A DNA stretch of 64,000 nt, from positions 64,930-128,929 of the forward strand of contig JACROF010000003.1 of assembly GCA_016214555.1 (NCBI GenBank), given 5' to 3'. The stretch comes from Candidatus Levyibacteriota bacterium. GTDB taxonomy: Bacteria > Patescibacteriota > Microgenomatia > Levybacterales > UBA12049. Below the pieces are notes generated by a model, which worked only from the letters and a program-made list of their open reading frames with translations, did not search any database and was not told the origin of the DNA. Of the stretch, positions 1,120-64,000 are shown piece by piece. The translations under genes were made by a program, and so were the position numbers. Position 1 is the stretch's first letter; every line of letters begins with the position of its first letter.

Positions 1120-1155
1120 CAAATTCAGTATAGTATAATTAACAAAAAAACATAC

Positions 1156-3129: not shown

Positions 3130-3131
3130 TA

Positions 3132-3641: not shown

Positions 3642-3647
3642 TGTTAT

Positions 3648-4775
3648 CTAGAACCCTTCAAGAATAGACGCAATCTCTTTTGCTTTTTTGATACTCACCC
3701 ACTGTCCAATTGGAATGGCAATATTCTCCTTGTCAAATGTATCAACTCCGGGAAGTTTTCCTGTTGTAAGCTTGCGAAATACAGGATAAATATCATTTCG
3801 CCTGTGCGCCTCTACCGCCTCAACGCCAATTTTTTTTAGGGCTTTAACAAGTTTTGATCTATTTTCAGAGCTTCCGCACAGAACGATATATAACCAATAG
3901 TTCGGCTTGGAGTCAGGAAGAATTGTTTGAGGTTTTAAAGACTTGCTTTTTGATAGTGCTTTGTCATAAATTGCTGCTATTTTTCTTCTATAAGCAATAC
4001 GGCTAAGTAGGTATGGGATTTGGCCTAATCCAATTGAAGCTGCAATATCAGTCATCTGCATTTTGTACCCTACTTCAGAAATAGGATACTCCCAAAAAGT
4101 CTCTCCCCAGACCCTTTGTTCCCTATCAATCCCATACCATCGTAATGTTTTTGCGCGTTTTACATCTTTCTTTCTTTTACAAACCAAAACTCCTCCGTCA
4201 CCTGTTGTTATTATCTTTGTAGCTTGAAAACTAAAAGCCACAAAATCTGAATGAGTACCAATTGGTTTACCTCCGTATTCAGATCCTAATGCCTGAGCTG
4301 CATCTTCAATAACTGGAATACCAAACTTCTTAGCAATCCTGTTTATTTTGTCAATTTCTGAAGAAACACCTCCAAAGTCTACCACCATTATTGCCTTAGT
4401 ATGTTTGGTAATTTTTCGCTCAATATCTTCAGGATCAATATTACCCGATTCAGGATCAACATCTGCCCAGATTGGAATCCCGCCCTCAAGAACAATCGCG
4501 GCATTGGTAGCAAAACAAGTCATCGGAGTAGTGATAACTTCCCCTTCTTTAACTCCAGCTAGTCGCAGAGCAAGCTGCAAAGCTGAAGTTCCGGAGTTTA
4601 GGGCAACAACATTTGGGTTTTCAATAACCTTTCCGATATCTTCTTCGAACTCCTTAACCCTTGGCCCATCTCCCCCAATCCACCCAGATCTTAAAGTCTT
4701 ATTTACTAATGCGATAGACTCTTTAGTCACACTTACTTTGTATGAAGATGTATTCTTAATCCTTTTCATGGCCAA
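3648..4775 (-). CDS. DegT/DnrJ/EryC1/StrS-family PLP-dependent sugar aminotransferase
   Basis: Typical family motifs: NSGTSALQLAL, the catalytic lysine context DFVAFSFQATKIITTGDGGVL, and IEDAAQALGSEY. Paired with the GNAT this resembles PseC/PseH or PglE/PglD-type amino-sugar synthesis. Confidence 0.9.
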   Translation of the reverse strand: MAMKRIKNTSSYKVSVTKESIALVNKTLRSGWIGGDGPRVKEFEEDIGKVIENPNVVALNSGTSALQLALRLAGVKEGEVITTPMTCFATNAAIVLEGGIPIWADVDPESGNIDPEDIERKITKHTKAIMVVDFGGVSSEIDKINRIAKKFGIPVIEDAAQALGSEYGGKPIGTHSDFVAFSFQATKIITTGDGGVLVCKRKKDVKRAKTLRWYGIDREQRVWGETFWEYPISEVGYKMQMTDIAASIGLGQIPYLLSRIAYRRKIAAIYDKALSKSKSLKPQTILPDSKPNYWLYIVLCGSSENRSKLVKALKKIGVEAVEAHRRNDIYPVFRKLTTGKLPGVDTFDKENIAIPIGQWVSIKKAKEIASILEGF

Positions 4776-35303: not shown

Positions 35304-36218
35304 TTATTGGGTCTCAGGCGTTGCAATAACAAATAACCTTTTCCATGTTGTGCCGGGCGGCCAGCAGGTCTGGAGGATAAGCTGCTCTTTCCCAGGAATC
35401 TGGCTATTTACTAACAAATCAACATCTTGGGGATCTTTGACAACGCTGTGGTCAACAACAAAATTGTATCTGGTATCTTCAAAATAAATGGAAATCTTGT
35501 CTCCTTTCTGAAGCTCTTTTAAGAGATAAAAGATTGCATTATACCTCCCCACATTCCAAAAATTATCTGTAGAGTGGGCAAAAAGATAGATATTCCCCTG
35601 CATCCCTGGGAACACACTCCCCTTGGCATGCGCAACACCATCTTGTAATTTTGGTAGAAAATCTTTTTCGCTTAAAGGATCGACGTTTGGCCATATCTTA
35701 GCAGCTGCGCCGATTTTAGGAATAATGATACTAAACCTGGGATCAGGCGGAACAAGCACCTGTTCTTTGGCGCCAGCAATGATATCACCAAACCCTGGCT
35801 GGATATTTTCTGCAGCAACTACTCCATTGCCAAAATTATCTTTTGAGATATTAAATTGCACGCCTCTTAGTTGCGCTATACGAAATTGCGCTTCGTACAA
35901 AATAGCAGGGCTAAAAGTTGCGATGACTCCATAAAGACTGATAAGCAGAAGAAAATTCCCAAGGCTTCGAATAGCCATATATCGCAATTTCTCATTACGT
36001 GTCATGACGTGCTTGTAAACAACTGACTTTGGTGGCTCTACAAAGACATGAGGAGGTTCTATCTGTGGAACAATAGTGTGGTGGTGAGGAGCCTCAACTT
36101 CTGGTAGATAAATACCCTCCCCACTCTTTTTTGAAGGGGCGACAAAAATATCACCATATTTGGCAAGGGATCTCTCTTTAGATTTTTTGGCAAACTCACT
36201 TCCTGAAGTATGCGACAT
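35304..36218 (-). CDS. Sortase-family transpeptidase
   Basis: N-terminal TM anchor (YMAIRSLGNFLLLISLYGVIATF). Catalytic His context NIYLFAHS. Active-site TLxTC-like motif LILQTCWPPGTTWKRLFV. Confidence 0.7.
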   Translation of the reverse strand: MSHTSGSEFAKKSKERSLAKYGDIFVAPSKKSGEGIYLPEVEAPHHHTIVPQIEPPHVFVEPPKSVVYKHVMTRNEKLRYMAIRSLGNFLLLISLYGVIATFSPAILYEAQFRIAQLRGVQFNISKDNFGNGVVAAENIQPGFGDIIAGAKEQVLVPPDPRFSIIIPKIGAAAKIWPNVDPLSEKDFLPKLQDGVAHAKGSVFPGMQGNIYLFAHSTDNFWNVGRYNAIFYLLKELQKGDKISIYFEDTRYNFVVDHSVVKDPQDVDLLVNSQIPGKEQLILQTCWPPGTTWKRLFVIATPETQ

Positions 36219-37617: not shown

Positions 37618-39060
37618 TTAGAAAGTAACCGATGCTGTATAAGTCATGATCTGCCAATAGTCTCCAGGAGGTGTCGCGCTGCCAGCTCGCGCTCCATAAA
37701 CAACATAAACCACGTCTCCTCCTGATGGTGATGGGGCTGAGGGATAATTGACAAGAGTGTAATAGAATTTTGCCGATGGATTAGCAAAGCTTGGAGTTGC
37801 CTGACCCCAAATAGTTGTATTAACTCTACTATTGGCATCACACGCAGTAATACCATACCCCCCTGTTGTACCACTAATAGTCGTAGGTGCTGGAGTATTA
37901 TTGGCAGTAACGTTACCCTGAGCATTCACGACGTACTGTCCTGAAGCAGGATTAAGCAAAAAACCCGATGAGGTTGCGGTAATCACATACCCAGAACCTG
38001 TATTGGACTGAAGCGTCATTCTTTGTGCTGCATAGGTATTTCCTGAGCTATTAATAGTCCCCAGATTAACATCTGTTGATGTAGAAGGAAAATTTACGTT
38101 TGCATTCAATGCCGACCCACCATTGTAGCTTCCACCACAGACGCTGACCATATTTGTACTCGCCATTCCATCAATATTAAAGCTAAATGTAGGATCAATA
38201 TGGGCAACGACAAAAACTGATTCTATTGTACCCATCTTAAGAGATGCTGTGTCCAAAACGCTTCCCCCCGAACTACTGTAGGTAGTAACCCCAATATTTT
38301 TAACATCAGCTGTGCCTCGTGCCCCACTGGAATTATGTGTTGGGTTAATAATCGTTGGGAGTTGTGTGGTGCATGTTGTTGCAGATGTGGCTGAACACCC
38401 AAGCCATATCCAGACAGTTGTACCTCCAGGAATACTGCCTCCTGATGTCGTGCAGGTAGCCTTTGGTGTCTGACCATTTGAGCCATTGGTCACACCTGTC
38501 AGAGCCCATGAACAAGTAGCAGCTCCTTGGCCTATTTTTTCTTTGATGTTTCCACTTGCAAGACCATTAAACATCCAGGTATTTGCTGAAGGAGAGGCCT
38601 GGACAGTATCCTGACCCGTGACAGATGATGAAGTTGGATATGAAATTTCAATTACTCCCCCTGATGGAATCGCTGATTGAGTCGTAAAAACGATCTGATG
38701 CATTGCTGTGATAGGCACTGCCAAAATTCCTGTTTTGTCATGCGCAGCAGTCGTACTTCCTGTAAAGTAGACTGTCAGCCTATCAGCAGAAGTCGTTGCG
38801 ACCTGGACATACTCCTGAGCTCCATTTCGAAAAAAGACAGCAGAGTCGGATGAAAGATAGGTCGATGAATTATCAATAACGGTTACATTTGCAGCGCTTG
38901 CTGAGTAGTCTGCTGAGAGAGGAGCAGAGGCTGAGGGTCTTGAGGTTGTAGCGCTTGCTGAGGCATTAGAGAGTGAGGCTGCAAGGGTCTTTTTTGGCAA
39001 AAATACTCCTAGGCAAATCAAGGCAAGTAAAAAAATACACGACCGAAATCTAACGGGCAT
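37618..39060 (-). CDS. Secreted cell-surface protein (480 aa), paralog of 54547..55992; WxL-like C-terminus
   Basis: Signal peptide MPVRFRSCIFLLALICLGVFLPKKTLA. Matches the paralog block by block (ASLxNASASATTSRPS, VATTSADR, ITAMHQ.VFTTQ.AIP, VQASPSANTWMFNGL, VFVVAH.DPTF, GNVTANNTPAP, PPGDYW.IMTYTASV.F). Confidence 0.75.
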   Translation of the reverse strand: MPVRFRSCIFLLALICLGVFLPKKTLAASLSNASASATTSRPSASAPLSADYSASAANVTVIDNSSTYLSSDSAVFFRNGAQEYVQVATTSADRLTVYFTGSTTAAHDKTGILAVPITAMHQIVFTTQSAIPSGGVIEISYPTSSSVTGQDTVQASPSANTWMFNGLASGNIKEKIGQGAATCSWALTGVTNGSNGQTPKATCTTSGGSIPGGTTVWIWLGCSATSATTCTTQLPTIINPTHNSSGARGTADVKNIGVTTYSSSGGSVLDTASLKMGTIESVFVVAHIDPTFSFNIDGMASTNMVSVCGGSYNGGSALNANVNFPSTSTDVNLGTINSSGNTYAAQRMTLQSNTGSGYVITATSSGFLLNPASGQYVVNAQGNVTANNTPAPTTISGTTGGYGITACDANSRVNTTIWGQATPSFANPSAKFYYTLVNYPSAPSPSGGDVVYVVYGARAGSATPPGDYWQIMTYTASVTF

Positions 39061-49434: not shown

Positions 49435-52008
49435 CTATACGGCAACGACGAAATTTAAAATTTTACCTGGGACATAGATTGCTTTCTTAATAGTTTTTCC
49501 TTCAAGATGCTTTTGAACCGAAAAATCTTCATGCGCGATACGCTCTACCTCTTCCTGACTTGCTTGAGGGTCGTTAAGAACAAAAGTGCCTCTTAATTTC
49601 CCATTGATCTGTACAGCAATCACCGTATCTCCACTTTCAATGAATTTCTGATCAAAAGCTGGCCAGACAGAAGTATGGATTGAGCCTTGTTCGCCTAGTC
49701 TGTGCCATAACTCCTCTGTTATATGTGGTGCAAAAGGAGCAAGAAGCTGCAATAGCACTTTAGCCTCAGTCAATGAAATCTCTTTTTGCTCTGAGAGGAA
49801 ATTGTAGTAGGTCATAATCTTAGCAATGGCTGTATTGTAGTGAAAACCTTCGATATCCTCTGTCACACCTTTAATAGCCTTGTGCATCTCGGATTTAGCA
49901 CTACTGTCAACCTCTTTGCTAATAATTGTTTGGCTTGATAACAAGACCCAAATTCTCTTCATGAAGCGAAACATACCTTCAATGCCACTATCCCGGAAAT
50001 CACCACCCATATTAAATGGTCCTAAAAACATCAAATATGTTCGAAGTGTGTCAGCTCCAAATTTCTTGATATATTCATCAGGCACGACTACATTGCCTTT
50101 TGACTTGCTCATCTTCGCACCATCTTTGATAATAAGTCCATGAGCAAAAAACCTTGGAAAAGGCTCGTCGAAGTCTACAAGCCCTAGGTCGTGAGAAACT
50201 TTAGTCAAAAATCGTGCATATAACAAATGCAAAACAGAGTGCTCTGCCCCACCCGTATAAATAGTTGGCGGAAGCCATAACTTACCAACTCCCTCATCCC
50301 ATGCATGATCATTATCACTCGTTGAAGTATAGCGATAAAAATACCAAGCGCTATCTAAGAAAGTATCAGATACATCTGTTTCTCTTTTTGCTTCTTTCCC
50401 ACACGATGGACAGTTAACTGTGTAAAACTCTGGATGCCTTCCAAGAGGCGATGTTGCCTCAGAATTCTCAGATGAAGCACCAATTGGCTTGTAATCCTCA
50501 ATATATGGCAACTCAATTGGCAAATTTTCATCAGGATACCAACCAGGCATTTGAGTAGATAGGGTCTGGTGTTGAACAGCTTGCAAGCTCTCCCTATTTA
50601 CTAAATACTTACTACTAACCCCTTCTTTTGAGGTAAACCATGATCTTCCCTCTTTGGCACAATGCTCACAATAAATCATCGGTATCGGCGGCCCCCAGTA
50701 TCTCTGCCGAGATATGAGCCAATCTCTCAAATGATAATTCGTTGACTCCGTTGCCAATCCTCTCTCTTGAAGATATGCGATGATCTTGTCTTTATCTTTA
50801 GGGGCAAGAAGACCATTCCACTCACCTGAATTAATAAGCTTTCCCTCGCCCGTATAGGCCTCCTTAGTAATATTTGCTGATTCGTGCTGGATGACCTGGA
50901 TAATAGGTAACTCATATTTACGGGCAAATTCGTAATCTCTCTGATCATGCCCGGGAACTGCCATAATTGCCCCTGTTCCATAAGACATCAGGACATAATC
51001 AGCAATCCAAACAGGCATCTGCTGATTATTGATTGGGTTGATGACATAGGCCCCACTAAAAACACCGCTCTTTTCTCTATCACTTAAATCTTTTTCTAGT
51101 GCGCGGATCTTTGCTTTTGCAACATAGTCTGATACTCCAGGATTGCTCATCCATTCCTTAACCAATGGATGCTCAGGCGAAACAACCATAAAAGTTGCGC
51201 CAAAAAGCGTATCTGGTCGAGTAGTGAAGACTGAAAGATCGTTATCGGTATCGGCTACTCGAAAAGTGATTTTTGCCCCCTGACTCTTTCCTATCCAGTT
51301 TCGCTGTGCCGTCTTTACCTTCTCAGTCCAGTCAATCTTGTCTAATCCCTCAAGAAGTTGCTCTGCATATTCTGTGATCCGAAACATCCATTGCTTGAGC
51401 TCCTTCTTTTCAACCTCAGCTCCACATCGCTCACACTGACCATCAATGACCTGCTCATCAGCCAGAACAGTCATGCACGAGGGACAAAAATTGACACCAA
51501 CGCTCTCCCTGTAAGCAAGACCAGACTTAAATAACTCAATAAAGATCCACTGTGTCCATCTATAATAATCTGTATCATATGTTTCTAAAATATGTGACCA
51601 GTCATAGCCACTCCCTAGTGATTTGACCTGATCATAAAATCTCTTCTCACTTTTTTTAGCCTGCTCCATAGGATGACTCCCAATTTTGAGAGCATAGTTC
51701 TCAGAATGAATTCCAAACCCATCAAGGCCAAATGGCTGGAAGACATCAAAGCCTTGCATTCTCTTAAAACGACCGTGGATATCGGCTCCGGTAAAAGCAT
51801 AAACATTTCCTACATGAAGACCTTCCGCTGAAGGATAAGGAAACATATGGAGGTTATAATATGGCCTTTTAGCAGAATGTAAATCTGGCTGATAAATCTT
51901 TTCCTTCAACCAAATCTCTTGCCACTTCTGCTCTATCCTTTGAGGAAAATACTTTGTATCCTCGCCTTGGACCTGATCCTTAGCGCTTAGCGCACTAGCT
52001 TTCTTCAT
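49435..52008 (-). CDS. leuS: Leucyl-tRNA synthetase
   Basis: 857 aa with the class I HIGH-region PYPSAEGLHVGNVYAFTGADIHGRF and a KMSKS-type MSKSKGNVV motif. Full length. Confidence 0.95.
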   Translation of the reverse strand: MKKASALSAKDQVQGEDTKYFPQRIEQKWQEIWLKEKIYQPDLHSAKRPYYNLHMFPYPSAEGLHVGNVYAFTGADIHGRFKRMQGFDVFQPFGLDGFGIHSENYALKIGSHPMEQAKKSEKRFYDQVKSLGSGYDWSHILETYDTDYYRWTQWIFIELFKSGLAYRESVGVNFCPSCMTVLADEQVIDGQCERCGAEVEKKELKQWMFRITEYAEQLLEGLDKIDWTEKVKTAQRNWIGKSQGAKITFRVADTDNDLSVFTTRPDTLFGATFMVVSPEHPLVKEWMSNPGVSDYVAKAKIRALEKDLSDREKSGVFSGAYVINPINNQQMPVWIADYVLMSYGTGAIMAVPGHDQRDYEFARKYELPIIQVIQHESANITKEAYTGEGKLINSGEWNGLLAPKDKDKIIAYLQERGLATESTNYHLRDWLISRQRYWGPPIPMIYCEHCAKEGRSWFTSKEGVSSKYLVNRESLQAVQHQTLSTQMPGWYPDENLPIELPYIEDYKPIGASSENSEATSPLGRHPEFYTVNCPSCGKEAKRETDVSDTFLDSAWYFYRYTSTSDNDHAWDEGVGKLWLPPTIYTGGAEHSVLHLLYARFLTKVSHDLGLVDFDEPFPRFFAHGLIIKDGAKMSKSKGNVVVPDEYIKKFGADTLRTYLMFLGPFNMGGDFRDSGIEGMFRFMKRIWVLLSSQTIISKEVDSSAKSEMHKAIKGVTEDIEGFHYNTAIAKIMTYYNFLSEQKEISLTEAKVLLQLLAPFAPHITEELWHRLGEQGSIHTSVWPAFDQKFIESGDTVIAVQINGKLRGTFVLNDPQASQEEVERIAHEDFSVQKHLEGKTIKKAIYVPGKILNFVVAV

Positions 52009-52148: not shown

Positions 52149-52643
52149 ATGTCACTTACAAGACAAGCTGTCCTTATTGTAGGAATAGGCATTCTCATCT
52201 GGATCTGGCAATTACTGTCCCTAGAGAGCCTCACTGTCCCCATTATTGGACTTATGGTGCTGGCATACCTTGTAGCTTCAAAGCTTACGCAAAAAAATCG
52301 CTCTGGAGAAAAAAGGGCAATCGATCACTATCTTGTCCTTCTGCTCTCGAGTATTGTTGTTCTCCTTGTCTTCTCAACGGGAGGCCTGGACTCTTCAATT
52401 TTTTTTCTTTTGTATTTTGCTTTTTTTGCTATTGGATTTGCTCTCATGCCAGATAGTGTTTTTATTTTTATGGCCGTTGTCGTTTTGCTACTCCTGCCCC
52501 AAGGACTCAAAGAAAATATGTCTGAAAATCTGATAAAAATTGGCTCACTCATTTTGATTGCCCCTCTTGCCTATTTTTTTTCTGAAAAAACAAAAGCTGA
52601 GCTCGCAGATATCATTACTAAATCCGAGGAGTTTAAGGAATAA
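52149..52643 (+). CDS. Hypothetical polytopic membrane protein
   Basis: 164 aa, 4-5 TM helices. It is the first gene of the surface-protein cluster. Confidence 0.45.
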   Translation: MSLTRQAVLIVGIGILIWIWQLLSLESLTVPIIGLMVLAYLVASKLTQKNRSGEKRAIDHYLVLLLSSIVVLLVFSTGGLDSSIFFLLYFAFFAIGFALMPDSVFIFMAVVVLLLLPQGLKENMSENLIKIGSLILIAPLAYFFSEKTKAELADIITKSEEFKE

Positions 52644-52649
52644 TCTCGT

Positions 52650-53402
52650 ATGAAACTTGCCTATCTTAGCCTATCAATCCTCTTGGCCTTCTTTTTTTTA
52701 ACTGCTCAAAAAGCTATCAATCTAGAACAAATTAGTGCATTTACCATGAGTAATGCGAATTGGATTATCGATTTTGCCAATCTCAATATGACATCCGGAA
52801 AACCAACAGGGCCAAATTACAAAGTCAGTAACACCGTTGGCCAGATTGCACCAGGTCTGTACTCAGGAACCAATTTTAAGGTTCGAGCAGGCTTCCAATA
52901 TGTTTATTCCATCATCCCCTTTAGCTTTACCATAAGCACGCTTGAAATTAACTTTGGCACACTTATTCCAACCAATCCCGTGACAAGAACAAACGTCCTA
53001 ACCCTTAGCAATGGCTCGGCAAATGGCTACTCAGTCCTTGCCTATGAAAATCACGCACTACTGATCCCGGGAAGCGGCAGAATGATCCCAGACACAAGCT
53101 GTGATGCCGGAACATGCACGCAAATAACAGCAGCTGCATGGACGAGTTCGCTTGCGTATGGATTTGGATATCGATGCGACAACCTCAGCGGTACAGACTG
53201 TTCAACAGACTTCTCAACAGGTACTTTTTATAAGCAATTTGCCAATGACTCTGATGGCGAAACTGCCCAAGCTGTTATGAGAGGGGTGAATGTCGGAAGG
53301 TCAAAACAAGTGCAAATTACCTACAAAGCAAATATTTCAGCAACCCAACCTCCTGGAGAATATACCAATCAAATAATTTACTTGGCAATACCAACTTTTT
53401 AA
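52650..53402 (+). CDS. Secreted WxL-like small surface protein (250 aa)
   Basis: Signal peptide. The C-terminus TQPPGEYTNQIIYLAIPTF parallels the C-termini of the 480-aa paralogs (TPPGDYW.IMTYTASV.F). Confidence 0.55.
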   Translation: MKLAYLSLSILLAFFFLTAQKAINLEQISAFTMSNANWIIDFANLNMTSGKPTGPNYKVSNTVGQIAPGLYSGTNFKVRAGFQYVYSIIPFSFTISTLEINFGTLIPTNPVTRTNVLTLSNGSANGYSVLAYENHALLIPGSGRMIPDTSCDAGTCTQITAAAWTSSLAYGFGYRCDNLSGTDCSTDFSTGTFYKQFANDSDGETAQAVMRGVNVGRSKQVQITYKANISATQPPGEYTNQIIYLAIPTF

Positions 53403-53404
53403 TT

Positions 53405-54469
53405 ATGAATAAACATATAGAGTATAAAGTAGCAAGAATTAAGCAAAAGGCAGTAATAATTAGCTTGCTATCTACTTTATTCTGCATACTATCTACTAAT
53501 CAAATAGATGCTGCAAGCTTTGAGCTTTCCGTCTCGCCGCCGATCTTTGAGATAGAATTAACTCCTCCAGCCGTTGCCGATGTGAATGAACAAATTATTC
53601 TTGAAAACACCGGTGATGATGGTATGAATTTAGAAATTGATTTCAGACTATTCAGACCTCAAGACAAGAACGGCGATATTGTCTATCTTAAAAAGGGAGA
53701 CCTCTATGGGGATGATCCTTTAATCCTTAAAAGAATTCGCATTATGGATGACGATAAAGAGATTCATGAACTTTATCTCTCTCCCCATACCAAGAAAAAA
53801 CTTAACCTCATCATAACTATTCCCAAAGATGAGCCACCCTCTGATTATTACTTCAGTATTCTTTTCTCATCAAAGGAGGATGAAAAACAAAATAACGGCT
53901 CGTATACAGAGTCAATTGGCGGTGTTGCGGTCAATACTCTCCTTTCTATCGGCCCTAAAGACTCAACGAAAGGCTCTATCGAAGAATTTTCGACGGATTT
54001 TTTTAGGACTGAAGGCCCGGTGCCTTTTGTCGTGACGATCCACAACAAGAGCAAACATTTTATCTCCCCTCAAGCAAGTATAGCTATCAGAAACATGTTT
54101 GGACAAACGATAGGAAAGATTGAGCTTTTACCCGTAAATATCCTTTCAGAATCAAGTAGATCTCTTCCCAGTAAAGAACAATTTGTTATCAACGCTCAAG
54201 AAACTGACGAGGATAAAAAAACAAAAAAACAAAATGCGACCATACTTAAGCTCATCTCACACTCTCTTACTCCAGTTGCAGTCTGGCCTGAGTCTTTTCT
54301 CCTTGGCCCCTACTCTGCCACCCTCACAGTTGCTCTTTCAGAAAATGGCCCTTTATATGTGAAGACTATTCATTTTTTCGCATTTCCACTTCATATTCTT
54401 ATTGGATTTATCATCGCTATTCTTCTTCTCTTAACAATTAAGCATCGACTCGCGTACAAAAAAGTTTGA
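53405..54469 (+). CDS. DUF916/DUF3324-like cell-surface protein with a C-terminal TM anchor
   Basis: Signal peptide. FELSVSPPIFEIELTPPA start. C-terminal TM LHILIGFIIAILLLLTI followed by a basic tail KHRLAYKKV. Confidence 0.55.
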   Translation: MNKHIEYKVARIKQKAVIISLLSTLFCILSTNQIDAASFELSVSPPIFEIELTPPAVADVNEQIILENTGDDGMNLEIDFRLFRPQDKNGDIVYLKKGDLYGDDPLILKRIRIMDDDKEIHELYLSPHTKKKLNLIITIPKDEPPSDYYFSILFSSKEDEKQNNGSYTESIGGVAVNTLLSIGPKDSTKGSIEEFSTDFFRTEGPVPFVVTIHNKSKHFISPQASIAIRNMFGQTIGKIELLPVNILSESSRSLPSKEQFVINAQETDEDKKTKKQNATILKLISHSLTPVAVWPESFLLGPYSATLTVALSENGPLYVKTIHFFAFPLHILIGFIIAILLLLTIKHRLAYKKV

Positions 54470-54546
54470 AGCCATAAACAATCAGAACTGTCACAATTTG
54501 ACCTATTCTAGCCCTTGACAACCTGACATTTTTCACACAATACTGG

Positions 54547-55992
54547 ATGTACATGAGAAAATACTTTCTGCTCTTATTCTCGTTGTTTTCGTTGGCTCTT
54601 TTTTTTGTGGTCGCAACACAAAAAACCGAAGCTGCTTCCTTACTCAATGCTTCAGCAAGTGCTACAACCTCACGACCCTCCCCATCATCCCCCCTCTTTA
54701 TCCCAGATCCCATGAGCATAGGAACCTCATCAGCAAGAGTCTATGACAATCTCTCAACTTTTCTCTCATCTGATTCTGCAAAATTCTTTAACAACGGCGT
54801 TTTTAGCGAGATATTAACTGTCGCTACAACCTCAGCTGATAGACAAACGCTTTTTTTCACAGGCGCAGCCACTGCTGCCCACAATAGAACTTCAGTTATT
54901 ACTGCTCCCATCACTGCGATGCATCAATTTGTGTTTACTACCCAAACCGCTATCCCTGTTAACGGAACTATCGAGATCACGTATCCAAACTCAGGATCCC
55001 TGGATACTGTCCAGGCATCGCCTTCGGCAAATACCTGGATGTTTAATGGGCTATCAACAAGCAATATTAAGCAAAAAATTAGCCAAGGCACTGCTGGATG
55101 CAACTGGACCAAGTCTGGAGATACCAATGGCTCAGGCGGGCAGACTCCAAAGTTAGTCTGTACAGTAACTGGAGCAATTATCCCAGCAGGAGCAACAGTG
55201 TGGGTTTGGGTTGGCTGCTCTACTTATACCAATGGCACCTCATGCGCAACACAAAATCCCAACCTTATTAACCCAACAGCTTTAACAGGACGAGGTATCG
55301 CTGATGTAAAAAATATCAATGTGATTACGTATGATGTATCTGGAGGCAACATTCTTGACTCATCGTCGCTGAAAATGGGGACCATTGATTCGGTCTTTGT
55401 CGTTGCTCACGTTGATCCTACATTCACCTTCCGTATTGATGGCGTGGCATCAGGAGTAGATATCAACACGTTATGCTCAGGCTATACGAGCGCAACATAT
55501 TTCACCCAAAACCAAAGTGGTGTTAACTTCCCCACAACAGGAACTGATGTCAACTTAGGCACAGTCAGTAGCGGAGGACCAAATTATGCAGCGCAAAAAA
55601 TGAGCATTGTCTCCAACACCAGCGTTGGGTATGTAATCACTGCTACGTCTTCAGGATTCCTAGTAAACCCCTCGAGTGGAAAATACATCGTAAATACCCA
55701 AGGCAACGTCACAGCGAACAATACACCTGCACCTGTTGTGATGCCTGGCACGGGAGGGTTTGGTATCAATGCATGCGATAGTAGCAGCAGAGTTAACACG
55801 ACCACCTGGGGTACTACAGCACCGAAATTTGCCAATCCGTCACAAAACTTCTACTACACACTAGTAAACTATGCTGGAGCTCTCAGCGGCACGGACAATA
55901 TCTATGTAGTATACGGCGCTCAAGCGCAGGCAACGACACCTCCTGGAGACTACTGGGAAATTATGACATATACTGCCTCTGTAGCGTTTTAA
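54547..55992 (+). CDS. Secreted cell-surface protein (481 aa), paralog of 37618..39060; WxL-like C-terminus
   Basis: Signal peptide MRKYFLLLFSLFSLALFFVVATQKTEA. Conserved blocks shared with the paralog as listed there. Confidence 0.75.
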   Translation: MYMRKYFLLLFSLFSLALFFVVATQKTEAASLLNASASATTSRPSPSSPLFIPDPMSIGTSSARVYDNLSTFLSSDSAKFFNNGVFSEILTVATTSADRQTLFFTGAATAAHNRTSVITAPITAMHQFVFTTQTAIPVNGTIEITYPNSGSLDTVQASPSANTWMFNGLSTSNIKQKISQGTAGCNWTKSGDTNGSGGQTPKLVCTVTGAIIPAGATVWVWVGCSTYTNGTSCATQNPNLINPTALTGRGIADVKNINVITYDVSGGNILDSSSLKMGTIDSVFVVAHVDPTFTFRIDGVASGVDINTLCSGYTSATYFTQNQSGVNFPTTGTDVNLGTVSSGGPNYAAQKMSIVSNTSVGYVITATSSGFLVNPSSGKYIVNTQGNVTANNTPAPVVMPGTGGFGINACDSSSRVNTTTWGTTAPKFANPSQNFYYTLVNYAGALSGTDNIYVVYGAQAQATTPPGDYWEIMTYTASVAF

Positions 55993-56041
55993 AAAGACAC
56001 TTTACAGCACAATGGTAGTATGGTAGCGTTGAAGTATAGCT

Positions 56042-57019
56042 ATGATAATTAAAACTGCCCAAAAAGGATCATTGGTTGCAAAAATACAAACAGGAGCGAT
56101 TGTTACCTCTCTTGCTCTTTCCGTTTTGGGAACAGCAACCTACACAGGCCTTGTTGATCAAATATCAGCACAGGCTAGCACAGCTAGATCCATAACTATT
56201 ACTCCTCCATCTCTCCCCTTTACTGTTAATCCTGGAGAAAAAAAGGAAGGTGTTTTGGGACTAATTAATGAGTCAAATGACGACATTGTCTTTAGCGTTG
56301 TCATCTACGATATGATCGTTGAGGACAATCAAGGAACACCAGAATTTCTTCCCGCTGGAACAATCTCAAGTAACAAATACGCTGCGAGTTCATGGATAGG
56401 CGTTGACTCACCTAGTCTTCTCGTAAAGGCGCACTCACGAGGCACTCTTCACTACTATGTACAAGTCCCAGCTGATGCAGGTCCTGGCGGTCATTATGCA
56501 GGCATCGTGTATCACCCTGAGAGAGTTGAGATCGCAAAAGGCTCAGGAGCAGCAATCAATCAACAATTAGCAACGCTTGTTTACTTTGACGTAGCAGGAC
56601 CTGTTAAGGAAAGTGCTCAGGTAAAACAGTTTAGCGCTCCAGGATTCTCAGAGTATGGACCCGTAAAGCTTACTACAGAAATCAGCAACTTCGGAGACAC
56701 TCACATCAAACCAACTGGAACTCTGACCGTAACTGACATGCTTGGAAAAGTTGTAGCTTCAAAGAAGATTCAGGAGCAAAATATTTTTCCAGGAGGAATC
56801 TCTCGCCTATTTGAAGAATCAGTTGGTAAGAAATGGATGCTTGGAAAATATGAGGCAAAGCTAATGGCTACTTATGGTCGAAACAACAACCTTCCTCTTG
56901 TTGCCTCAGTTGCTTTCTGGGTATTCCCATGGAAGATAGCACTTCTCATCATCACACTTATCGTTGCAGCAATCCTTGGCTATCTGTACGTAAAGAAAAA
57001 CAAGCACACCCCGCAGTAG
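56042..57019 (+). CDS. DUF916/DUF3324-like cell-surface protein with a C-terminal TM anchor
   Basis: Signal/anchor at the N-terminus, SITITPPSLPFTVNPGEKKEGVLGLINESNDDIVF, and a C-terminal TM WKIALLIITLIVAAILGYLYV plus a KKNKH tail. Confidence 0.6.
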   Translation: MIIKTAQKGSLVAKIQTGAIVTSLALSVLGTATYTGLVDQISAQASTARSITITPPSLPFTVNPGEKKEGVLGLINESNDDIVFSVVIYDMIVEDNQGTPEFLPAGTISSNKYAASSWIGVDSPSLLVKAHSRGTLHYYVQVPADAGPGGHYAGIVYHPERVEIAKGSGAAINQQLATLVYFDVAGPVKESAQVKQFSAPGFSEYGPVKLTTEISNFGDTHIKPTGTLTVTDMLGKVVASKKIQEQNIFPGGISRLFEESVGKKWMLGKYEAKLMATYGRNNNLPLVASVAFWVFPWKIALLIITLIVAAILGYLYVKKNKHTPQ

Positions 57020-57141: not shown

Positions 57142-58068
57142 CTAATACCCCACAAACCACGAATGGTGCAGCTTTTTTCTCTCAGGATGAAAGAATAGAT
57201 ACATTTTGTTGTTGTAAACAAAAGTAAACTTCTCCGGCCAAAGCTTGAGGAGTAAATAAACAATAAGAGGTATGAGAGGCAATATGATCCATAATGGGCC
57301 AAGCCCAAAGCCTGTGAGTACGTTCCATAGCCATCTGAAGAAATCTTTGAGCCATTGAAGCAATTGACCAAGCCATGATAACGCAACAAGCTTTACGGTA
57401 TTGGAAGGATTTTCAGACGATTTCCCATCGTACACAGCGGTCGCGTAGAGCTCGTAGACGCCTGCTTTTAAATTCTTGAGGGTTAACTCATAATATCCAT
57501 CTTTATCAGCCACAACCGTGTACGTGGTCCCATCCTGCAGATGAATAGTGACTGTAGCACCCGGCATCGTGTACCCAAAAACAACAGCATTCCCTCCTGC
57601 TGTAATCTGCGATCTCTGAAGCCCAATTGTTGGTGGAAGGAAAATATTCTTCTTATCAATATTGTTATTGGCTGCAGGAATACTCAGGCATGTAGTTGAC
57701 TCTCCTATGTTCTTGTAATCGATATGCTGTAAACAAAAACTAGAAAAATTACGATTAATAAGAATATCTTTAAAAGCCCAAAAGCCATTTTGATCTGCGA
57801 CGGTGCTTCGGTAAAAAACACCATTGGAGGTAAGAATAATTGAGGCAAATGGCGAAGCGAATCCAGAGAGGTTAAGGTAAAACTCACCAATACGGGCAGA
57901 GACTTTAACAGGGTCCTCAGTCTCAGATATCGTTGTGGTCGCCAACACAGGACAATTTTGGAATAGCAAAAACAACATTGCTATGACAAAAAACAATTTG
58001 ACTATACTAAAACTCTTAATGCTCATACACCACAAACGAGAGAGCCTTTTAAAAACAGGCTCTCTCAC
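57142..58068 (-). CDS. Secreted/anchored hypothetical protein with an Ig-like (carboxypeptidase-regulatory-like) domain and a C-terminal TM
   Basis: N-terminal hydrophobic signal VKLFFVIAMLFLLFQNCPVLA. TVTIHLQDGTTYTVVADKDGYYELTLKNLKAGVYELYATAV. C-terminal TM LGPLWIILPLIPLIVYLLL. Confidence 0.5.
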   Translation of the reverse strand: MREPVFKRLSRLWCMSIKSFSIVKLFFVIAMLFLLFQNCPVLATTTISETEDPVKVSARIGEFYLNLSGFASPFASIILTSNGVFYRSTVADQNGFWAFKDILINRNFSSFCLQHIDYKNIGESTTCLSIPAANNNIDKKNIFLPPTIGLQRSQITAGGNAVVFGYTMPGATVTIHLQDGTTYTVVADKDGYYELTLKNLKAGVYELYATAVYDGKSSENPSNTVKLVALSWLGQLLQWLKDFFRWLWNVLTGFGLGPLWIILPLIPLIVYLLLKLWPEKFTFVYNNKMYLFFHPERKKLHHSWFVGY

Positions 58069-59113
58069 TAGTATAGTAGTATTAATTTTAAAAATGAGAG
58101 ACTATCAATCTATATATAAATATATTAATAGATATCAATAAATTATCTTACAAAGCTTCGCAAGAAAATCGATAACTAGTGGCACAAAGCAAAGTAAATC
58201 TCATATACAAGAGCAACATGGTAAGGAAAAGGACTAATTACGGTAGTGGAAAATGATAAGGCTATATTATTTGTGCCTAAAAAATAAAAATAGATTGAAT
58301 TATCAATCTAAATATAACTATTATTTTTCTATCAGTCTAATGACATGATTGACAAAACAACCCGAAAGCGAAATAGACATGAGGCTAATTATTGAAAAGT
58401 CATAACTTATAAAAAAGGTAAGGACCAATTTTTTACCCCTTTCACACAAGTAATGGGGAAGAAAAAATTAACAGTAGCTAAAAATCTTCTTGGAAATATA
58501 TCTAACTATATCACCTATCAAAAATACCGACGTAGGAATATTATGATATCTTTAGATATATTCACTGTTTTTTACCGAGAACGACATAGTCGAAAAAAGA
58601 AAGAAATATCGTTGTGAAATAATAAAAACTTATCAATTTTCTTATTATTTTTGTATCTTTATTAAGATATCTAAAAATATCTAAATATATCAATACTATT
58701 TTACTCTAGGGTATTGACAGCCTCAATCACACTTGCGAACATATTAATAGATGTATTTATTAATATATGTAAGATTTTCATAAAAGAGATAGGTGATAAT
58801 CGGTATAATCTATATAATCTCAAGGCTAGAAACCAAATCACAATCTTTAAAAAATCTTACAAAAATAGAATTCATCAAGAAGGAACAAGCTATGAAAAAT
58901 CATAAAGTTGGGCACGATCTTATTTTCACAAGTAGAAAGTCGAATTCATCCATGAAAACGGCTGTGAAATATTCCTATGAGACTCACTCCTCTACTGGGG
59001 AGATGGATAGAATCATGATAATCCTTTCAGCAGTTGCACTGAGCTTCTTTGTTAGTCAATTCTTTTTGATTATTGCAAGATAGCGAATGTATCTAAACCA
59101 ATATGGACTTATC

Positions 59114-62100
59114 TGCCCAGTTCAAATCGTTTCTTAGTAAACAGAAGAAGCCTGCTTCAAAGATAACGATTAAAAATTATATAGCTGACCTCAATCAGTT
59201 TGTTCGTTGGTACAAATCTCACTACAACAAGGATTTCCATCCATCGCAATTCACTTCTGAAGTCGTTGAGATCTACAAGACAACTCAAAGCGGTCTTTCT
59301 CCTGAATACAAAAATGCCACCTCCATCTCAGCTCGATCGCTCAAACGACATCTATCAACTCTTCGTAAATTTGCCAGCTTCCTAGTAGTAAAGGGCTATA
59401 TCTCAAGCTCGCCATTAGCTATTAACCATTCGCCATTAGCAAAATCTGACCCGTTCCATCTCAAAGCCTTCAAAGAGCATCTCTATCTCTCCAAATCATC
59501 GGATCTTACTATAAAAAACTATATCAATGACATCAAGCAGCTTTGTCACTGGGCTGGAGAAATAGATGATATCTCTTCATTGATTAATAGCGCCTCACTA
59601 AAAAACTACCGAGAAAATCTTATTGCTAACTCTGGCCTCTCTGAGGCCTCAATACATCGCAAGCTTTCCTCTCTTCGCCGCTATGCGAGATTTATGCAAG
59701 AGAAGAACTTTATCAATGCAAAAGACTTATCTGAATACTTAGACCAGACTCTTACTAGCAAATTGTTAGCAGGAGCAAGATCACTGGAAGAGGCAAAAGA
59801 AAGATTGTCGCCAGGGCAAGATCTAAACAGAACTCAGCAATCAACCATACCTGCTGCTAATCATGACTTGGACACTTCCGCTCTGACCTCAAGTGCTCAG
59901 CTCCCTGAGAAGCCAGTATCTAGTATTTCGTATCAAGTATCTAGCAAAGATACTAATAAATCTCAGCTAAATACTAAATACCAAATACCAAATACTAGAT
60001 ATTCCCGTTTTGCTCCTTTCAGGCTAAGCCAAAAAATTCTCGCCCCTCTTGTTCTCGGATTTGATAATTCAGTCGTATCACTATCGGCAAAGGCACTTGA
60101 AAAAGCTCAATACCTTTCCTGGATAGCCAGAGGAAAGCAGATATTCTCATCTAGTGCTAAAAATGGTTTAGCTGATGCTATTAAAATAAAATCTATCGTT
60201 CCAGGCAATGTCCTTCCCAGCTTACTTCAAAATAACAGTGGATCTTTGCTAAATACTAAATACCAAACTTCAAATGCTAAATACCAAATACTAAATACTA
60301 AATACTCCCCCCTCCATCCTTCCCACCCATCATTTTCTAGTCTTCCGTTCCACCTCCGAGCTCTCGGTCATGCCCGACATACTAGACCAAACTGGTATAA
60401 AAAATATCATTCCTATTCAGTGGTGCATTATTTCCACTTTGCTGCACTTATCATCATGATGTCGGCTCTTGGATTTGGCTTGTACCGCTCGTTTATTGAA
60501 AATCCACAAAAAGAGCAGGCTCTTGCTGCTCCGCCAACAGCACCGCCAAGGCTCCTCTCGTTTCAAGGTCGGCTGACAGACTCAAACGACAACCCTATCA
60601 CAACCGCAAAAGACTTGCGGTTTACGGTTTATAATGACGCCTCTGCTACAGGCGCGGCCCTCCTCTGGCAAGAGACTCAACAGCTCACCCCAGACCAGGA
60701 TGGCATATTTTCTATACTCTTGGGGTCAAGTACTGCCATTCCTTCAACAGTATTTACCGACAACTCAACTCTCTATCTTGGCATCACTGTCCAATCTGAT
60801 AGCGAGCTTACTCCTCGTCAGCAAATTGCGACAGTTGCCTTTGCAGCAAATGCCGAAACCATCCAAGGCCTTCTTCCAAGCACAGGGGCAGGCGCTGGTC
60901 AAACAAATGTAGTCCTTGCTCTTGACTCAAGCGGCAATTTAACAATTGGCGGGACTGCTAACCCTACTTTTTCAGCAACGGGTGGATCATTTACGCTCTC
61001 TGGAAAAACATTAGCGCTCAACACAACAGCTGGCTCAAATGGCAATGTCACTCTTACCCCCGACGGAGTCGGCATCATCCAGCTCAATGCGCCAGTCCAA
61101 AACACAAACACAAATTATCGAAACAACATACCAACTGCTAAAGGTGCTGTTGAGATCGATGATATGTTTGCTGTCTTAGCTACATCCTCAGGTCAATCAG
61201 CATTCACTCTCAACCAAGACAGCACTGGTCCGCTGATTAGCGCTTCAACAAGTGGAGTTGCTAAATTTACCATTGCCAATGATGGCTCTGGCTACTTTGC
61301 AGGATCTGTCGGCATCGGTGATGTTACACCCGATGCTCCTCTTGATGTCGTTGGTGATGTCTATATCAGCGATGGGCTTAGTCTCTATGAAACAGCAGTC
61401 TCAGATGGCACAGTTGAAGCGACCAAATTCTGCACAGGAGATGGTGAGACTAATTGTGTTACAGACTTCTCTGCTCTCGTGTCTGGAAGTAGTTATTGGC
61501 TCAGAAATCTTGGAGCACTCTCTCCTGCAAATGTGACTGATGATTTGCTTCTAGGGGCAAATGCAACCACAAGTGCAATTGTAAAACTTCCAGGCCTTAC
61601 CAACAATAATGCATTCTTTAATCTAGGAACTGGCAATGTTGGAATAGGTACCACAGCACCTGTTGCCAAATTAGACATACGAGGCTCTGGCATCTCCTCC
61701 CCTGTTGCTTCTATCTCAGGACAGACAAATGCTGTAGCTGCATTAGTCGTTGACAACAAAGTTGGAGATCTTTTTGCAGCTTCAAGTTCCGGATTAACAA
61801 GGTTTGTGATCACCCAGGCCGGAAATGTCGGCATCGGCCTTGGGACTATCATGCCCGTACAAGCACTAGACGTTTCAGGCAATGGCATGTTCCGCAATTC
61901 AGGAGATCTTGCCTCTACCTTCAGAGGTATTCATGTTCTTCCTACAACGACAACATCTGGTGGAAGCAACCAAGTAGTGAGAGGGTACTCAACCTCAAAT
62001 GGCTTTGCGCTTGAAGGGGGGAATACAGCCTTTGGCGCAACGCCTGCAACCATTGTCCTAAACGGACCGGGTGGCTACATATCATTTCAAACAAACACAA

Positions 62101-64000
62101 CAAATAGAAATGCTATTGGTGCATCTGAAAAAATGCGTATCACTAGCGATGGCAATATAGGTATTGGCACTACCGCTCCCCTTGCAACACTTCATGTTGC
62201 TAGTATTTCGGCAAAAGCGCTTGTGATCCTAGATCAAAACAACTCAACCCAGGATATTTTCACAGCTTCAGCTGCAGGAGTTACTAAATTTGTGATTAAT
62301 AATGGAGGCAATGTTGGAATTCTTGATAACAGTCCTGATGCGCCACTTGATGTCGTCGGAGATGTATACATAAGTGATGGTTTGAGTCTTTTTGAGACAG
62401 CAGTTAGTGATGGCACAGTAGAAGCGACTCAGTTCTGCACTGGTGATGGAGAAACTAACTGTGTAACAGATTTCTCAGCTCTCGTATCTGGAAGTAGCTA
62501 TTGGCAATTAAACAATAAAGTCCTCTCCCCAGGCAACTCTACCCATGATCTAGCTATTGGCGGCACAGCTACAAGCAGTGCCCTCTTCCAAGTATTTGCA
62601 GTAGGTACGAATGCAGGAACTGCATCTAGTTCAGGTCAACTGACCTTCAGGGGTACTACAGATCCTAAGATTAATATTCTTAATGGAGAGGCATTTGGGA
62701 TTAGCACCTCTGCGGGTGGAGATGCTGGGCTTACTGAGAGATTGACGATCACTAATGATGGTAACGTAGGGATTGGAAGTACCTTGCCTACACAAAAACT
62801 TTTTGTTGATGGAAACATTGGTATCACAGCAGGAGCAGCAAACAGCTTTATTGGAAGTAGTACATTTAATGGTTACAACCCAGCTGACAATGGAGGTAGG
62901 GCTGGAATAAATGCAGCAGCTAGTTTTTATCTCAATCTAGACTCAAATAATGATGGGACGACAGCTTTTTTCCAAATTGCAAAAGACTCTAACTCGCTCT
63001 CAGGCGGAACGCAGCTTTTCACAGTTAATGAGTCTGGAAATGTCGGGATCGGCACAACAACTAATCATGGATTTGTTCACATAAATGGAGGCACACAGGG
63101 AGGAAATGCAGCACTTGTTATCAATCAAACAGGTGCTCAGACAAATGACATCTTCACCGCATCATCATCTGGCGCCACCCGATTTAGTCTTGCAGGCGAT
63201 GGATCAGCCACCCACTCTGCTGTGACAAGCGGTGGATATGCCTATAGACTTACTGCCAACAATCTCACAACCGGAACAGGTATGTATCTTTCCTCAACTA
63301 GCACTGGACTTAGCACAGGTGGACTTCTGGCTCTAGACTGGTCACCAGGGTCTTCAACTGTCGCCACCGGCGATCTTTTGAGTCTCAATGTTGGAGCCAA
63401 TGGAACGTTGGGAAATATCTTTAATGTTAAAGATAATGGATCTAGTGTCTTCTCTGTCTCACAGAGTCAAATCACAGCTGCCCTCCCTACTTCATTTACT
63501 GCAGCTGGAGATACCTCATTTGCCTATGACATCAATTTTACCAATCCAACTGCTTCATACATCAAGAGTGCGGCTCCACTCTATCTCCAGGCTGGAGAAA
63601 CGTTTAACTCATCAGATCTGACATTACAAACATATAATGCAGGCAATGTCATCATTGACTCACAAGCATTTGTTACCAATTACGCAGCCACTGTCTCTGG
63701 CCAGCTGGTTGTCGGCACATCAACAGCTCCTGCCAATATCGGCAATTTCTACCTGACCAACTCAGCTGAATTTGGTAAGTCTCTGGCTATTCTCAATCAG
63801 ACTGAGTCAAACGATATCTTAACAGGTAGCAGTAGCGGTGTATTTAAATTCGTTTTTAACCAAAATGGCAACCTAGGCATCGGCACTTCTCTTCCTGCTG
63901 CTCCTCTGGATGTAGTTGGAGATATATATGGTTCATCTGGTATCTCACTGTATAACACAGCTGTTAGTGATGACACAGTTGAGGCAGTAAGATTTTGCAC
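59114..64000 (+). CDS. Giant partial protein (over 1628 codons, continues beyond the window) with two N-terminal integrase-type SAM-like (core-binding) domains, a single TM helix, and a long repetitive extracellular region
   Basis: Manual translation from ATG 59114 is open to the window end; it is absent from the ORF track because it has no stop. Core-binding-like copies: ITIKNYIADLNQFVRWY...SISARSLKRHLSTLRKFASFLVVKGYISSSP and LTIKNYINDIKQLCHWAGE...ASIHRKLSSLRRYARFMQEKNFI. TM helix VVHYFHFAALIIMMSALGFGLY with a basic N-flank. Downstream modules repeat NVGIGTT.P...L.V and three copies of PDAPLDVVGDVYISDGLSL[YF]ETAVSDGTVEAT.FCTGDGETNCVTDFSALVSGSSYW. Confidence 0.7.
59967..60001 (+). repeat. Heptanucleotide tandem repeat (T/C)AAATAC, about 5 units, inside the giant CDS
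   Basis: taaatac taaatac caaatac caaatac tagatat. Encodes NTKYQIPNTRYS. Confidence 0.7.
60240..60295 (+). repeat. Heptanucleotide tandem repeat (T/C)AAATAC, about 8 units (two degenerate), inside the giant CDS
   Basis: taaatac taaatac caaactt caaatgc taaatac caaatac taaatac taaatac. Encodes LNTKYQTSNAKYQILNTKYS. Confidence 0.7.

Follow-up and report, generated by a model that had tools for sequence, protein, structure and literature searches.

The stretch of DNA analyzed here (referred to as the window) comprises 64,000 nucleotides (nt) of contig JACROF010000003.1 from a Candidatus Levyibacteriota bacterium. The tightly packed plus-strand genes at positions 52149-57019, together with a convergent gene at 57142-58068, most probably form a Pam-type pilus operon of a Levybacteria bacterium, that is, an operon for a pilus assembled by chaperone-assisted, usher-free donor-strand exchange. 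Pam filaments are thin filaments of the candidate phyla radiation (CPR) parasite Ca. Mycosynbacter amalyticus that were solved by electron cryomicroscopy (cryo-EM) and whose subunits are joined by donor-strand exchange. The pam operon encodes the pilins PamA and PamB, in which a single linker strand lies between an N-terminal beta-sandwich and a truncated immunoglobulin-like C-terminal domain, the single-domain tip PamT, the PapD/FimC-like proteins PamC and PamD with a C-terminal transmembrane (TM) helix, and the terminator PamR, which is RbmA-like and anchored in the membrane. Only CPR bacteria, mostly Saccharimonadia and Microgenomatia, were found to have Pam pilins, and the Microgenomatia homologs share a similarity of ~21% and were detectable only by language-model search (bioRxiv 10.64898/2026.03.03.709456). 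This kind of system is already known, and the locus would be a new, divergent Microgenomates member of it. In agreement with the restriction to CPR, the host lineage is Patescibacteria group, Microgenomates group. Two of the encoded proteins, of 481 and 325 amino acids (aa), are identical to HZC02_02090 and HZC02_02095 (MAG: Candidatus Levybacteria bacterium). The close homologs are all metagenomic, and the few that are named belong to Levybacteria or to the "Patescibacteria group." The genes of the operon, which include one for a protein with immunoglobulin (Ig)-like domains and a TM helix (the Ig/TM protein), and a second pilin gene are as follows.

52149-52643, plus strand: small polytopic membrane protein, 164 aa; at the start of the operon; ~5 hydrophobic segments
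52650-53402, plus strand: PamT-like single-domain subunit, candidate pilus tip, 250 aa; signal peptide, short N-terminal region, Pam pilin C-terminal domain with 4 Cys
53405-54469, plus strand: chaperone-like protein 1, membrane anchored, 354 aa; signal peptide, two Ig-like domains, C-terminal TM helix, basic tail
54547-55992, plus strand: major pilin, 481 aa; signal peptide, N-terminal beta-sandwich, linker, C-terminal Pam pilin domain
56042-57019, plus strand: chaperone-like protein 2, membrane anchored, 325 aa; two beta-sandwich domains, TM helix
57142-58068, minus strand (convergent): Ig/TM protein, 308 aa; signal peptide, two Ig-like domains, TM helix, cytoplasmic tail
37618-39060, minus strand: second pilin, paralog of the operon pilin, 480 aa; separate from the operon, at a distance of ~15 kb

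In all operon proteins and in the second, orphan pilin an N-terminal hydrophobic segment was present, and the 354-, 325-, and 308-aa proteins contained a C-terminal one as well. The start of the major pilin in the NCBI record is 54553, two codons after that of the 481-aa open reading frame (ORF), which results in a protein of 479 aa.

An earlier reading made from the sequence alone (the sequence-only reading) had described four consecutive exported proteins of two alternating types. The four ORFs are indeed present, and the similarity within each type is far beyond chance. The 354- and 325-aa proteins matched each other by BLASTP with E=4e-13, and the comparison of their families by hhalign resulted in 99.9% (E=1e-34). 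The last ~155 residues of the 250-aa protein matched the C terminus of the 481-aa protein (E=4e-7), with 98.3% (E=1.6e-14) for the respective families. The C-terminal motifs quoted in that reading (...PPGEYTNQIIYLAIPTF and ...PPGDYWEIMTYTASVAF) were found, as was the block FELSVSPP in the 354-aa protein. LPXTG is absent from all parts, and the pilins and the PamT-like protein have no C-terminal TM segment; as that reading also stated, the 354- and 325-aa proteins end in a hydrophobic helix with a basic tail. The four genes of the proposed cluster are thus real, but the unit is larger, as the upstream membrane protein and the 308-aa Ig/TM protein travel along in related genomes. The sequence-only reading had further assigned the cluster to the Csc/WxL type. 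Such clusters, known from Lactobacillales, Listeria, and Bacillus, combine a short WxL protein, a long WxL protein, and WxLIP/CscA (DUF916, DUF3324, and a TM segment) (PMC10599100). The half of this assignment that concerns WxLIP was borne out, whereas the half that concerns WxL was not.

Pilin-like subunits and the search for a WxL domain

Two NCBIfam models that derive from the Pam preprint, NF058579 (CPR_pilus_PamT) and NF058581 (CPR_Pam_pilin_C), both of NCBIfam release 20, were matched by the subunits. The 250-aa protein matched NF058579 with E=6.9e-10 and 38.7 bits (cut-off, 240), with residues 23-133 aligned to profile positions 17-127, and NF058581 with E=8.2e-7 and 29.2 bits (cut-off, 55). 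For the 481-aa protein, the match to NF058581 covered profile positions 2-147 of 148 (E=7.1e-5, 22.9 bits; cut-off, 55). This model was matched by 39 of the 59 members of the pilin family, with a best E value of 9.1e-14; the orphan pilin alone gave no match to it at E<=10. A Saccharibacteria-titled relative aligned over its full length to the PamT model (E=7e-13). Pfam returned nothing for the 250-, 354-, and 481-aa proteins. As in the single-domain tip of the Pam system, the C-terminal half of the 250-aa protein is the Pam C-terminal domain, and the protein is devoid of the ~250-residue N-terminal domain of the pilins.

The 481-aa pilin contains 6 Cys and an invariant C-terminal Phe, and the pilin C termini are free (...TASVAF and ...TASVTF). 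Its AlphaFold2 model (predicted local distance difference test [pLDDT], 89.6) is all-beta and consists of N- and C-terminal blocks connected by a linker. Whole-chain Foldseek comparisons of this model gave weak and mixed matches, namely, the Csu pilin 7zl4 (probability, 0.99), the TasA fiber, and the PapG, CfaE, and CupB6 adhesins. Within the pilin family, conservation peaked at the N-terminal motif TTSRPS, the linker at 281-296 (DSVFVVAHVDPTFTF), the strand GYVITATSSG of the C-terminal domain, and the invariant final Phe; the preprint likewise reports the donated linker and its binding site as the most conserved parts of PamA and PamB. The orphan and operon pilins, which share 63% identity over 466 residues, both keep the TTSRPS motif, the linker, and the C-terminal domain. 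Judged by sequence, the 250- and 481-aa proteins are distant relatives of the Pam pilins and not WxL proteins. In place of the tip gene, the locus L090, titled uncultured Candidatus Saccharibacteria, contains a gene (252-3833, plus strand) for a 1,193-aa protein that scored 60.5 bits with the PamT-like hidden Markov model (HMM). In its apparent fusion of a large adhesin to a tip-subunit domain, this protein recalls "long WxL" proteins.

The WxL-like identity that the sequence-only reading had given to the 250- and 481-aa proteins was not upheld. References were a 14-sequence alignment from six enterococcal and lactococcal plasmid WxL clusters, which comprise WxL proteins, a small LPXTG protein, and a DUF916-DUF3324 protein, and an 81-sequence alignment obtained from a search of 1.84 billion representative proteins; a homolog search with a short WxL protein resulted in 2 matches only. 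The WxL family PF13731 had no match at E<=1 among the window proteins and was found in 0 of the 59 pilin-family members. Comparison of the Pam C-terminal domains with the WxL alignments by hhalign gave 0.5-2.8% (2% with the 81-sequence set), and unrelated controls scored as high. HMM searches in both directions between the pilin family and WxL returned nothing above controls. Only the last strand, PxGxY....T[WY]x[LA], aligned between the Pam C-terminal domains and WxL. On the basis of Pfam, hhalign, and two-way HMM searches, membership of the subunits in the WxL family was thus rejected. Instead, they match a pilin family, that of the CPR Pam pilus, an outcome that the sequence-only reading had itself named as contradicting its proposal. 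The Pfam searches it had suggested for the window proteins gave no significant match to PF13731 or PF11797, and PF06030 was matched with E=0.071 only. An LPXTG (CscD-like) partner, which it had also proposed to look for, is absent from the parts, and no ORF with a credible sorting signal was found in the window.

Chaperone-like proteins and their homology to WxLIP

The AlphaFold2 model of the 325-aa protein, generated from 60 sequences (pLDDT, 87.4), shows two beta-sandwiches (residues ~51-184 and 192-294) followed by a TM helix (297-321); the hydrophobic segments of the 354-aa protein are at residues 16-34 and 319-337. The structural comparison proposed in the sequence-only reading turned out in its favor for this type of protein. 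The best Foldseek matches of the 325-aa model in the Protein Data Bank (PDB) were the Enterococcus faecium WxLIP structures 9i1y_A (1.2e-11) and 9i25_C ("bound to long WxL"; 4.6e-11), followed by CfaA, CsuC, Caf1M, FimC, PapD, and EcpB (3e-9 to 6e-7) and also by RbmA. The Foldseek template modeling (TM) scores were modest (0.35-0.56). The fold and the C-terminal helix correspond to those described for PamC and PamD, which are PapD/FimC-like chaperones with such a helix, and two paralogs are present in the operon. At the sequence level, no Pfam similarity to the PapD or usher families was found.

The relationship to WxLIP was also apparent from sequence profiles. PF06030 (DUF916, WxLIP_PGBD) was matched by 33 of the 60 members of the chaperone family (best, 4.9e-7), whereas the value for the 325-aa protein alone (see above) remained under the Pfam gathering score. 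The sole PDB match of the chaperone-family profile was EfmWxLIP1 (9i25/9i1y; 4e-4). The comparison of this family with six enterococcal and lactococcal WxLIPs by hhalign gave 97.9% (E=3.4e-13) over 305 columns that span both domains and the TM helix, and that of the 354-aa family gave 94.1% (E=1.3e-7). PF11797 (DUF3324) was not among the Pfam families matched by the chaperone family. The WxLIP motif NQIDKxxxYFDLK aligned to a gap in the CPR family and is absent from both chaperone-like proteins of the window. Of the DUF916/DUF3324-like identity proposed in the sequence-only reading, the remote homology to WxLIP therefore holds, but PF11797 itself and the NQIDKxxxYFDLK motif are missing. Based on these profile comparisons, the chaperone-like proteins are true remote homologs of WxLIP/CscA at the family level; the correspondence to WxLIP/CscA does not extend beyond remote homology. 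This homology seems to be absent from the literature searched. The Pam preprint does not mention WxL, DUF916, or DUF3324 (bioRxiv 10.64898/2026.03.03.709456), and none of the literature searched links WxL with donor-strand chemistry; both terms co-occurred there only in a general review from 2013, once each.

The same homology is an argument for an alternative that we consider unlikely, namely, that the locus encodes a non-filamentous complex of the Csc/WxL type, in which wall-held surface proteins on a WxLIP/CscA scaffold serve adhesion or polysaccharide binding and do not polymerize. The TM-anchored proteins are genuine remote homologs of WxLIP, and the logic of the genes is alike, with a small domain-only protein, a large protein that combines an N-terminal extension with the same C-terminal domain, and a TM protein with two Ig-like domains. 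The alternative is contradicted by a WxL domain that was undetectable by any of the three approaches described above, by the lack of a CscD-like LPXTG protein, and by the alignment gap at NQIDKxxxYFDLK. Furthermore, the subunits match Pam pilin models, and the Pam proteins of a CPR bacterium form filaments, as seen by cryo-EM.

A different architecture was observed at L089:5333-6658 (plus strand), where the longest ORF over the first chaperone gene (441 aa) opens with a four-helix-bundle domain (TIGR02436, 1.2e-34) that has a weak similarity to Avd, a protein of diversity-generating retroelements. This ORF is either a real fusion or the result of ORF calling that joined an upstream gene in the same frame.

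Conservation of the operon and its surroundings

We scanned one genome per species with a 29-sequence chaperone alignment and found at least 561 places that encode a relative. An HMM census covered the best 80 of these at least 561 chaperone loci. A pilin was present in 71 and an Ig/TM protein in 70 of the 80 loci, followed by two chaperones (52 loci), a PamT-like protein (48 loci), and the membrane protein (42 loci). The complete ordered set, i.e., membrane protein, PamT-like protein, chaperone, pilin, chaperone, and Ig/TM protein, was found in 37 loci. The sequence-only reading had left a choice between transfer and deep conservation, and the abundance of the chaperone family, with CPR titles for most of the best 80 loci, fits the latter. 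The arrangement is illustrated by the neighborhoods of four homologs (42-67% identity), in which a LeuRS gene on the minus strand is followed by genes for a ~210-aa membrane protein, a ~250-aa PamT-like protein, a chaperone, a ~480-500-aa pilin, a chaperone, a ~290-aa Ig/TM protein, and a giant protein of 2,700-3,500 aa.

This gene order bears on a second alternative, namely, that the locus encodes an S-layer-type coat or secreted, unrelated adhesins with Ig-like domains and that the similarity to chaperones reflects the generic Ig fold. The modest scores of the chaperone model could be taken in this sense, since many unrelated two-Ig-domain proteins (e.g., ciliary proteins and RbmA) also score, and the whole-chain fold matches of the pilin are weak. 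However, the sequence profiles are independent of fold (E=3.4e-13 by hhalign against WxLIP, and the NCBIfam Pam matches), the order of genes is strict across many species with each subunit gene paired with a chaperone-like gene, and, in addition to having a conserved linker, the subunits invariably end in an aromatic residue. We thus regard this alternative as very improbable.

The Ig/TM gene is convergent in Levybacteria, whereas it follows directly after the second chaperone gene on the same strand in loci with, among others, Woesebacteria, Shapirobacteria, and Microgenomates group titles; it is therefore part of the operon. The 308-aa protein matched the Pfam families Big_6 (1.8e-7) and CarboxypepD_reg (8.8e-8), and the second Ig-like domain of its family matched the Bap Ig domains 7dm0 (6e-16, profile versus PDB). 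The cytoplasmic end of the family is conserved (KLHH[SA]WFVGY). With an HMM of the pilin linker, 11 of the top 60 non-pilin matches were N termini of Ig/TM proteins, none of them significant (best E value, 0.27). We take the Ig/TM protein as a candidate for the base anchor or the terminator, in analogy to PamR. The membrane protein, where present in the census, is encoded first (42 of the 80 loci). Its 164-aa version ends 7 nt before the 250-aa gene, which it overlaps in the related loci L009 and L010, and its relatives are ~205-290 aa long with an added acidic, coiled-coil-like C-terminal tail. Pfam and PDB searches with the 164-aa protein gave no informative match; a role in assembly or regulation is possible. 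Both the conserved membrane protein of the first gene and the Ig/TM protein with its cytoplasmic tail seem to be absent from the literature searched.

Three further genes of the window are located close to the orphan pilin gene or the operon.

35304-36218, minus strand: sortase (PF04203, E=1.2e-17)
49435-52008, minus strand: LeuRS, divergent neighbor of the operon
59103-64000, plus strand: giant ORF of at least 1,632 aa that runs off the end of the window; starts ~1 kb past the Ig/TM gene

For the orphan pilin, the sequence-only reading had noted a block-for-block paralog at a distance of 15 kb from the 481-aa protein and had concluded on the duplication of a surface-antigen gene. The paralogy was substantiated by the identity given above, but a recent duplication was not, as an ortholog exists in a conserved context elsewhere. 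This ortholog, from a groundwater genome (L001/L002), is 66.5% identical to the orphan pilin, as compared to 58% for the operon pilin. Its context is ArgRS, an M16 peptidase (82%), NDK, the pilin, and, further on, a sortase (63%), and its genome also carries the operon on a contig. Because this synteny is shared by another species that also has the operon, the combination of one operon and one separate pilin appears to be an old, maintained arrangement. A role of the orphan pilin as a second filament subunit, as in the pair PamA/PamB, fits better than a recent duplication.

The sortase gene is ~1.4 kb from the orphan pilin gene, and this proximity is kept in L001/L002, that is, in another species. 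It is the only observation in favor of a sortase-assembled pilus of the Gram-positive type made with the 35304-36218 sortase, a possibility that we regard as extremely remote: no part carries LPXTG or a C-terminal sorting signal, and no ORF of the window was recognized as a plausible substrate. For lack of sorting signals, this idea was rejected. In the enterococcal WxL cluster L007, a sortase gene follows directly after the WxLIP gene.

In 33 of the 80 loci, LeuRS is the divergent neighbor of the operon, with ComEA and ComEC beyond it, and these surroundings are thus stable. At the other side, two SAM-like domains of the phage-integrase type (PF02899, 3.9e-15) are present at the N terminus of the giant ORF. 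The same position in L009, L010, and L011 is taken by equivalent giant genes encoding 2,671-3,529 aa, one with Laminin_G_3. The Pam preprint reports a "tail fibre-like protein" co-localized with pam operons, to which the giant ORF may correspond.

A second, shorter module, encoded on one strand in the order Ig/TM protein, pilin, chaperone, and pilin, was observed in L012, L019, L020, L028, L040-L042, L046, and L077. In L012 this module is beside PEGA, MreB, and WecG genes, which is also the neighborhood beyond the sortase at the L001 orphan-pilin locus. Records titled "uncultured Gammaproteobacteria bacterium" (TPA_asm, SRP.../binchicken; L013, L015, L016, L020-L022, and ~30 more) carry the CPR operon with the same synteny, and the LeuRS of L015 is 70% identical over 863 aa to the Levybacteria LeuRS of the window. 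These records seem to be assigned to the wrong organism.

A scan for promoters and terminators found sites no more frequently than in shuffled sequence. In the segment 54515-54544 (plus strand), a perfect -35 hexamer (TTGACA) is separated from AATACT by 18 nt. The segment ends 3 nt before the first ATG of the pilin gene and 9 nt before the annotated start at 54553, and it could be an internal promoter that gives rise to a nearly leaderless pilin mRNA.

Proposed assembly and comparison with known systems

In the assembly that we propose, export and membrane tethering are deduced from sequence and predicted fold, whereas capping, tip formation, pilin addition, and anchoring follow the Pam cryo-EM model and the chaperone-usher paradigm. 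All parts, each of which has an N-terminal signal or TM segment, would be exported via the Sec pathway. The 354- and 325-aa chaperones would be tethered by their C-terminal helix on the outer face of the cytoplasmic membrane, with two Ig-like domains as in PapD/FimC and WxLIP, and would lend a beta-strand that caps the incomplete C-terminal Ig-like domain of new subunits. The 250-aa PamT-like protein, essentially a C-terminal domain alone, would start the fiber as its distal tip. The 481- and 480-aa pilins would then be added singly, with the linker strand of the incoming subunit displacing the chaperone strand of the previous one, and their N-terminal domains would decorate and stiffen a thin linear filament. 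The 308-aa Ig/TM protein would probably end the fiber and tie it to the membrane, and the small polytopic membrane protein would be accessory. Neither an usher nor an ATPase would be involved; there was no usher-like Pfam or NCBIfam match among the operon proteins, and all six parts were assigned to other types. By analogy, the likely function of the pilus is to contact or adhere to host cells or surfaces.

Several points weigh against the assignment to the Pam type. Every NCBIfam score is below the curated cut-off, and by the rule of NCBI the proteins are not members of the modeled families; Saccharibacteria-titled relatives are also under these cut-offs (26-48 bits). Searches of the PDB by sequence (with the pilin and its profile) or by fold returned no PamA, PamB, PamC, or PamD chains. 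The Ig/TM protein is PamR-like in architecture only, which in PamR comprises two tandem Ig/FnIII domains and a C-terminal TM helix; its sequence matches Bap-type Ig domains and not RbmA. The neighborhood consists of LeuRS, ComEA, ComEC, and the giant protein, as compared to ATP-synthase and CorB in M. amalyticus. Finally, donor-strand exchange, its donor strand, and the formation of a filament are predicted for this locus by analogy.

Among the systems compared, the Pam system has most elements in common with the locus: a CPR host, a single-domain PamT-like protein, pilins that are predicted to combine an N-terminal beta-sandwich, a conserved linker, and a Pam C-terminal domain with paired cysteines, two chaperones with a TM helix, a TM protein with two Ig-like domains, a second pilin paralog, and no usher, LPXTG, or ATPase. 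The locus differs in its low sequence similarity, in having one pilin in the operon and the second 15 kb away, and in that no PamE was identified. In addition, its candidate anchor is of the Bap/Big_6 type with a KLHHxWFVGY tail, and the operon opens with a polytopic membrane protein that has no counterpart in the preprint. CPR bacteria are mostly thought to be attached to cells, and the mode of contact is a central open question. Pam is the first type of filament described as exclusive to CPR, so far from one cultured species of Saccharimonadia. The present locus would be a syntenic six-gene version of Microgenomates, which provides family alignments, confident monomer models of a pilin and a chaperone, and two extra components.

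With chaperone-usher systems (Pap, Fim, Caf1, Csu, and CFA/I), the locus shares a two-domain Ig-like chaperone, Ig-like subunits with an aromatic residue at the extreme C terminus, and a presumed donor-strand assembly. The differences are the lack of an outer membrane and an usher, chaperones that are tethered instead of soluble, and the additional large N-terminal domain of the pilin.

The likeness to Csc/WxL clusters consists of the homology to WxLIP, which includes the TM helix as well as the two Ig-like domains, the same cluster logic, a partner thought in both cases to lend a beta-strand that completes the beta-sandwich of the subunit, and a similar C-terminal motif (PxGxY....T[WY]x[LA]). 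In contrast, the locus has no detectable WxL domain, no WxL motif pair, no NQIDKxxxYFDLK, and no CscD, and it contains two WxLIP-like genes per cluster. Csc/WxL hosts are Bacillota and not CPR bacteria, and WxL complexes are described as peptidoglycan bound and not as filaments. It is conceivable, at what we judge to be somewhat less than an even chance, that Pam pili and Csc/WxL clusters are two branches of one ancient single-membrane system, in which a tethered chaperone with two Ig-like domains (PamC/PamD in one branch, WxLIP in the other) completes an incomplete beta-sandwich subunit by a strand. A homology of the subunits themselves, i.e., of the Pam C-terminal and WxL domains, is undetectable by sequence. 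If such a common ancestry is true, Pam would not be "distinct from all previously characterised systems," and WxL proteins may be handled, and possibly polymerized, by donor-strand chemistry and not merely stuck to peptidoglycan. In that case, the conserved membrane protein and the Ig/TM protein with the KLHHxWFVGY tail, both outside the published model, may be the assembly platform and the anchor of the Microgenomates-type operon. The link between the chaperones and WxLIP connects a CPR machine to the surface system of lactobacilli, enterococci, and Listeria, which is widespread but poorly understood in mechanistic terms, and offers a concrete hypothesis on the origin of the one and the mechanism of the other.

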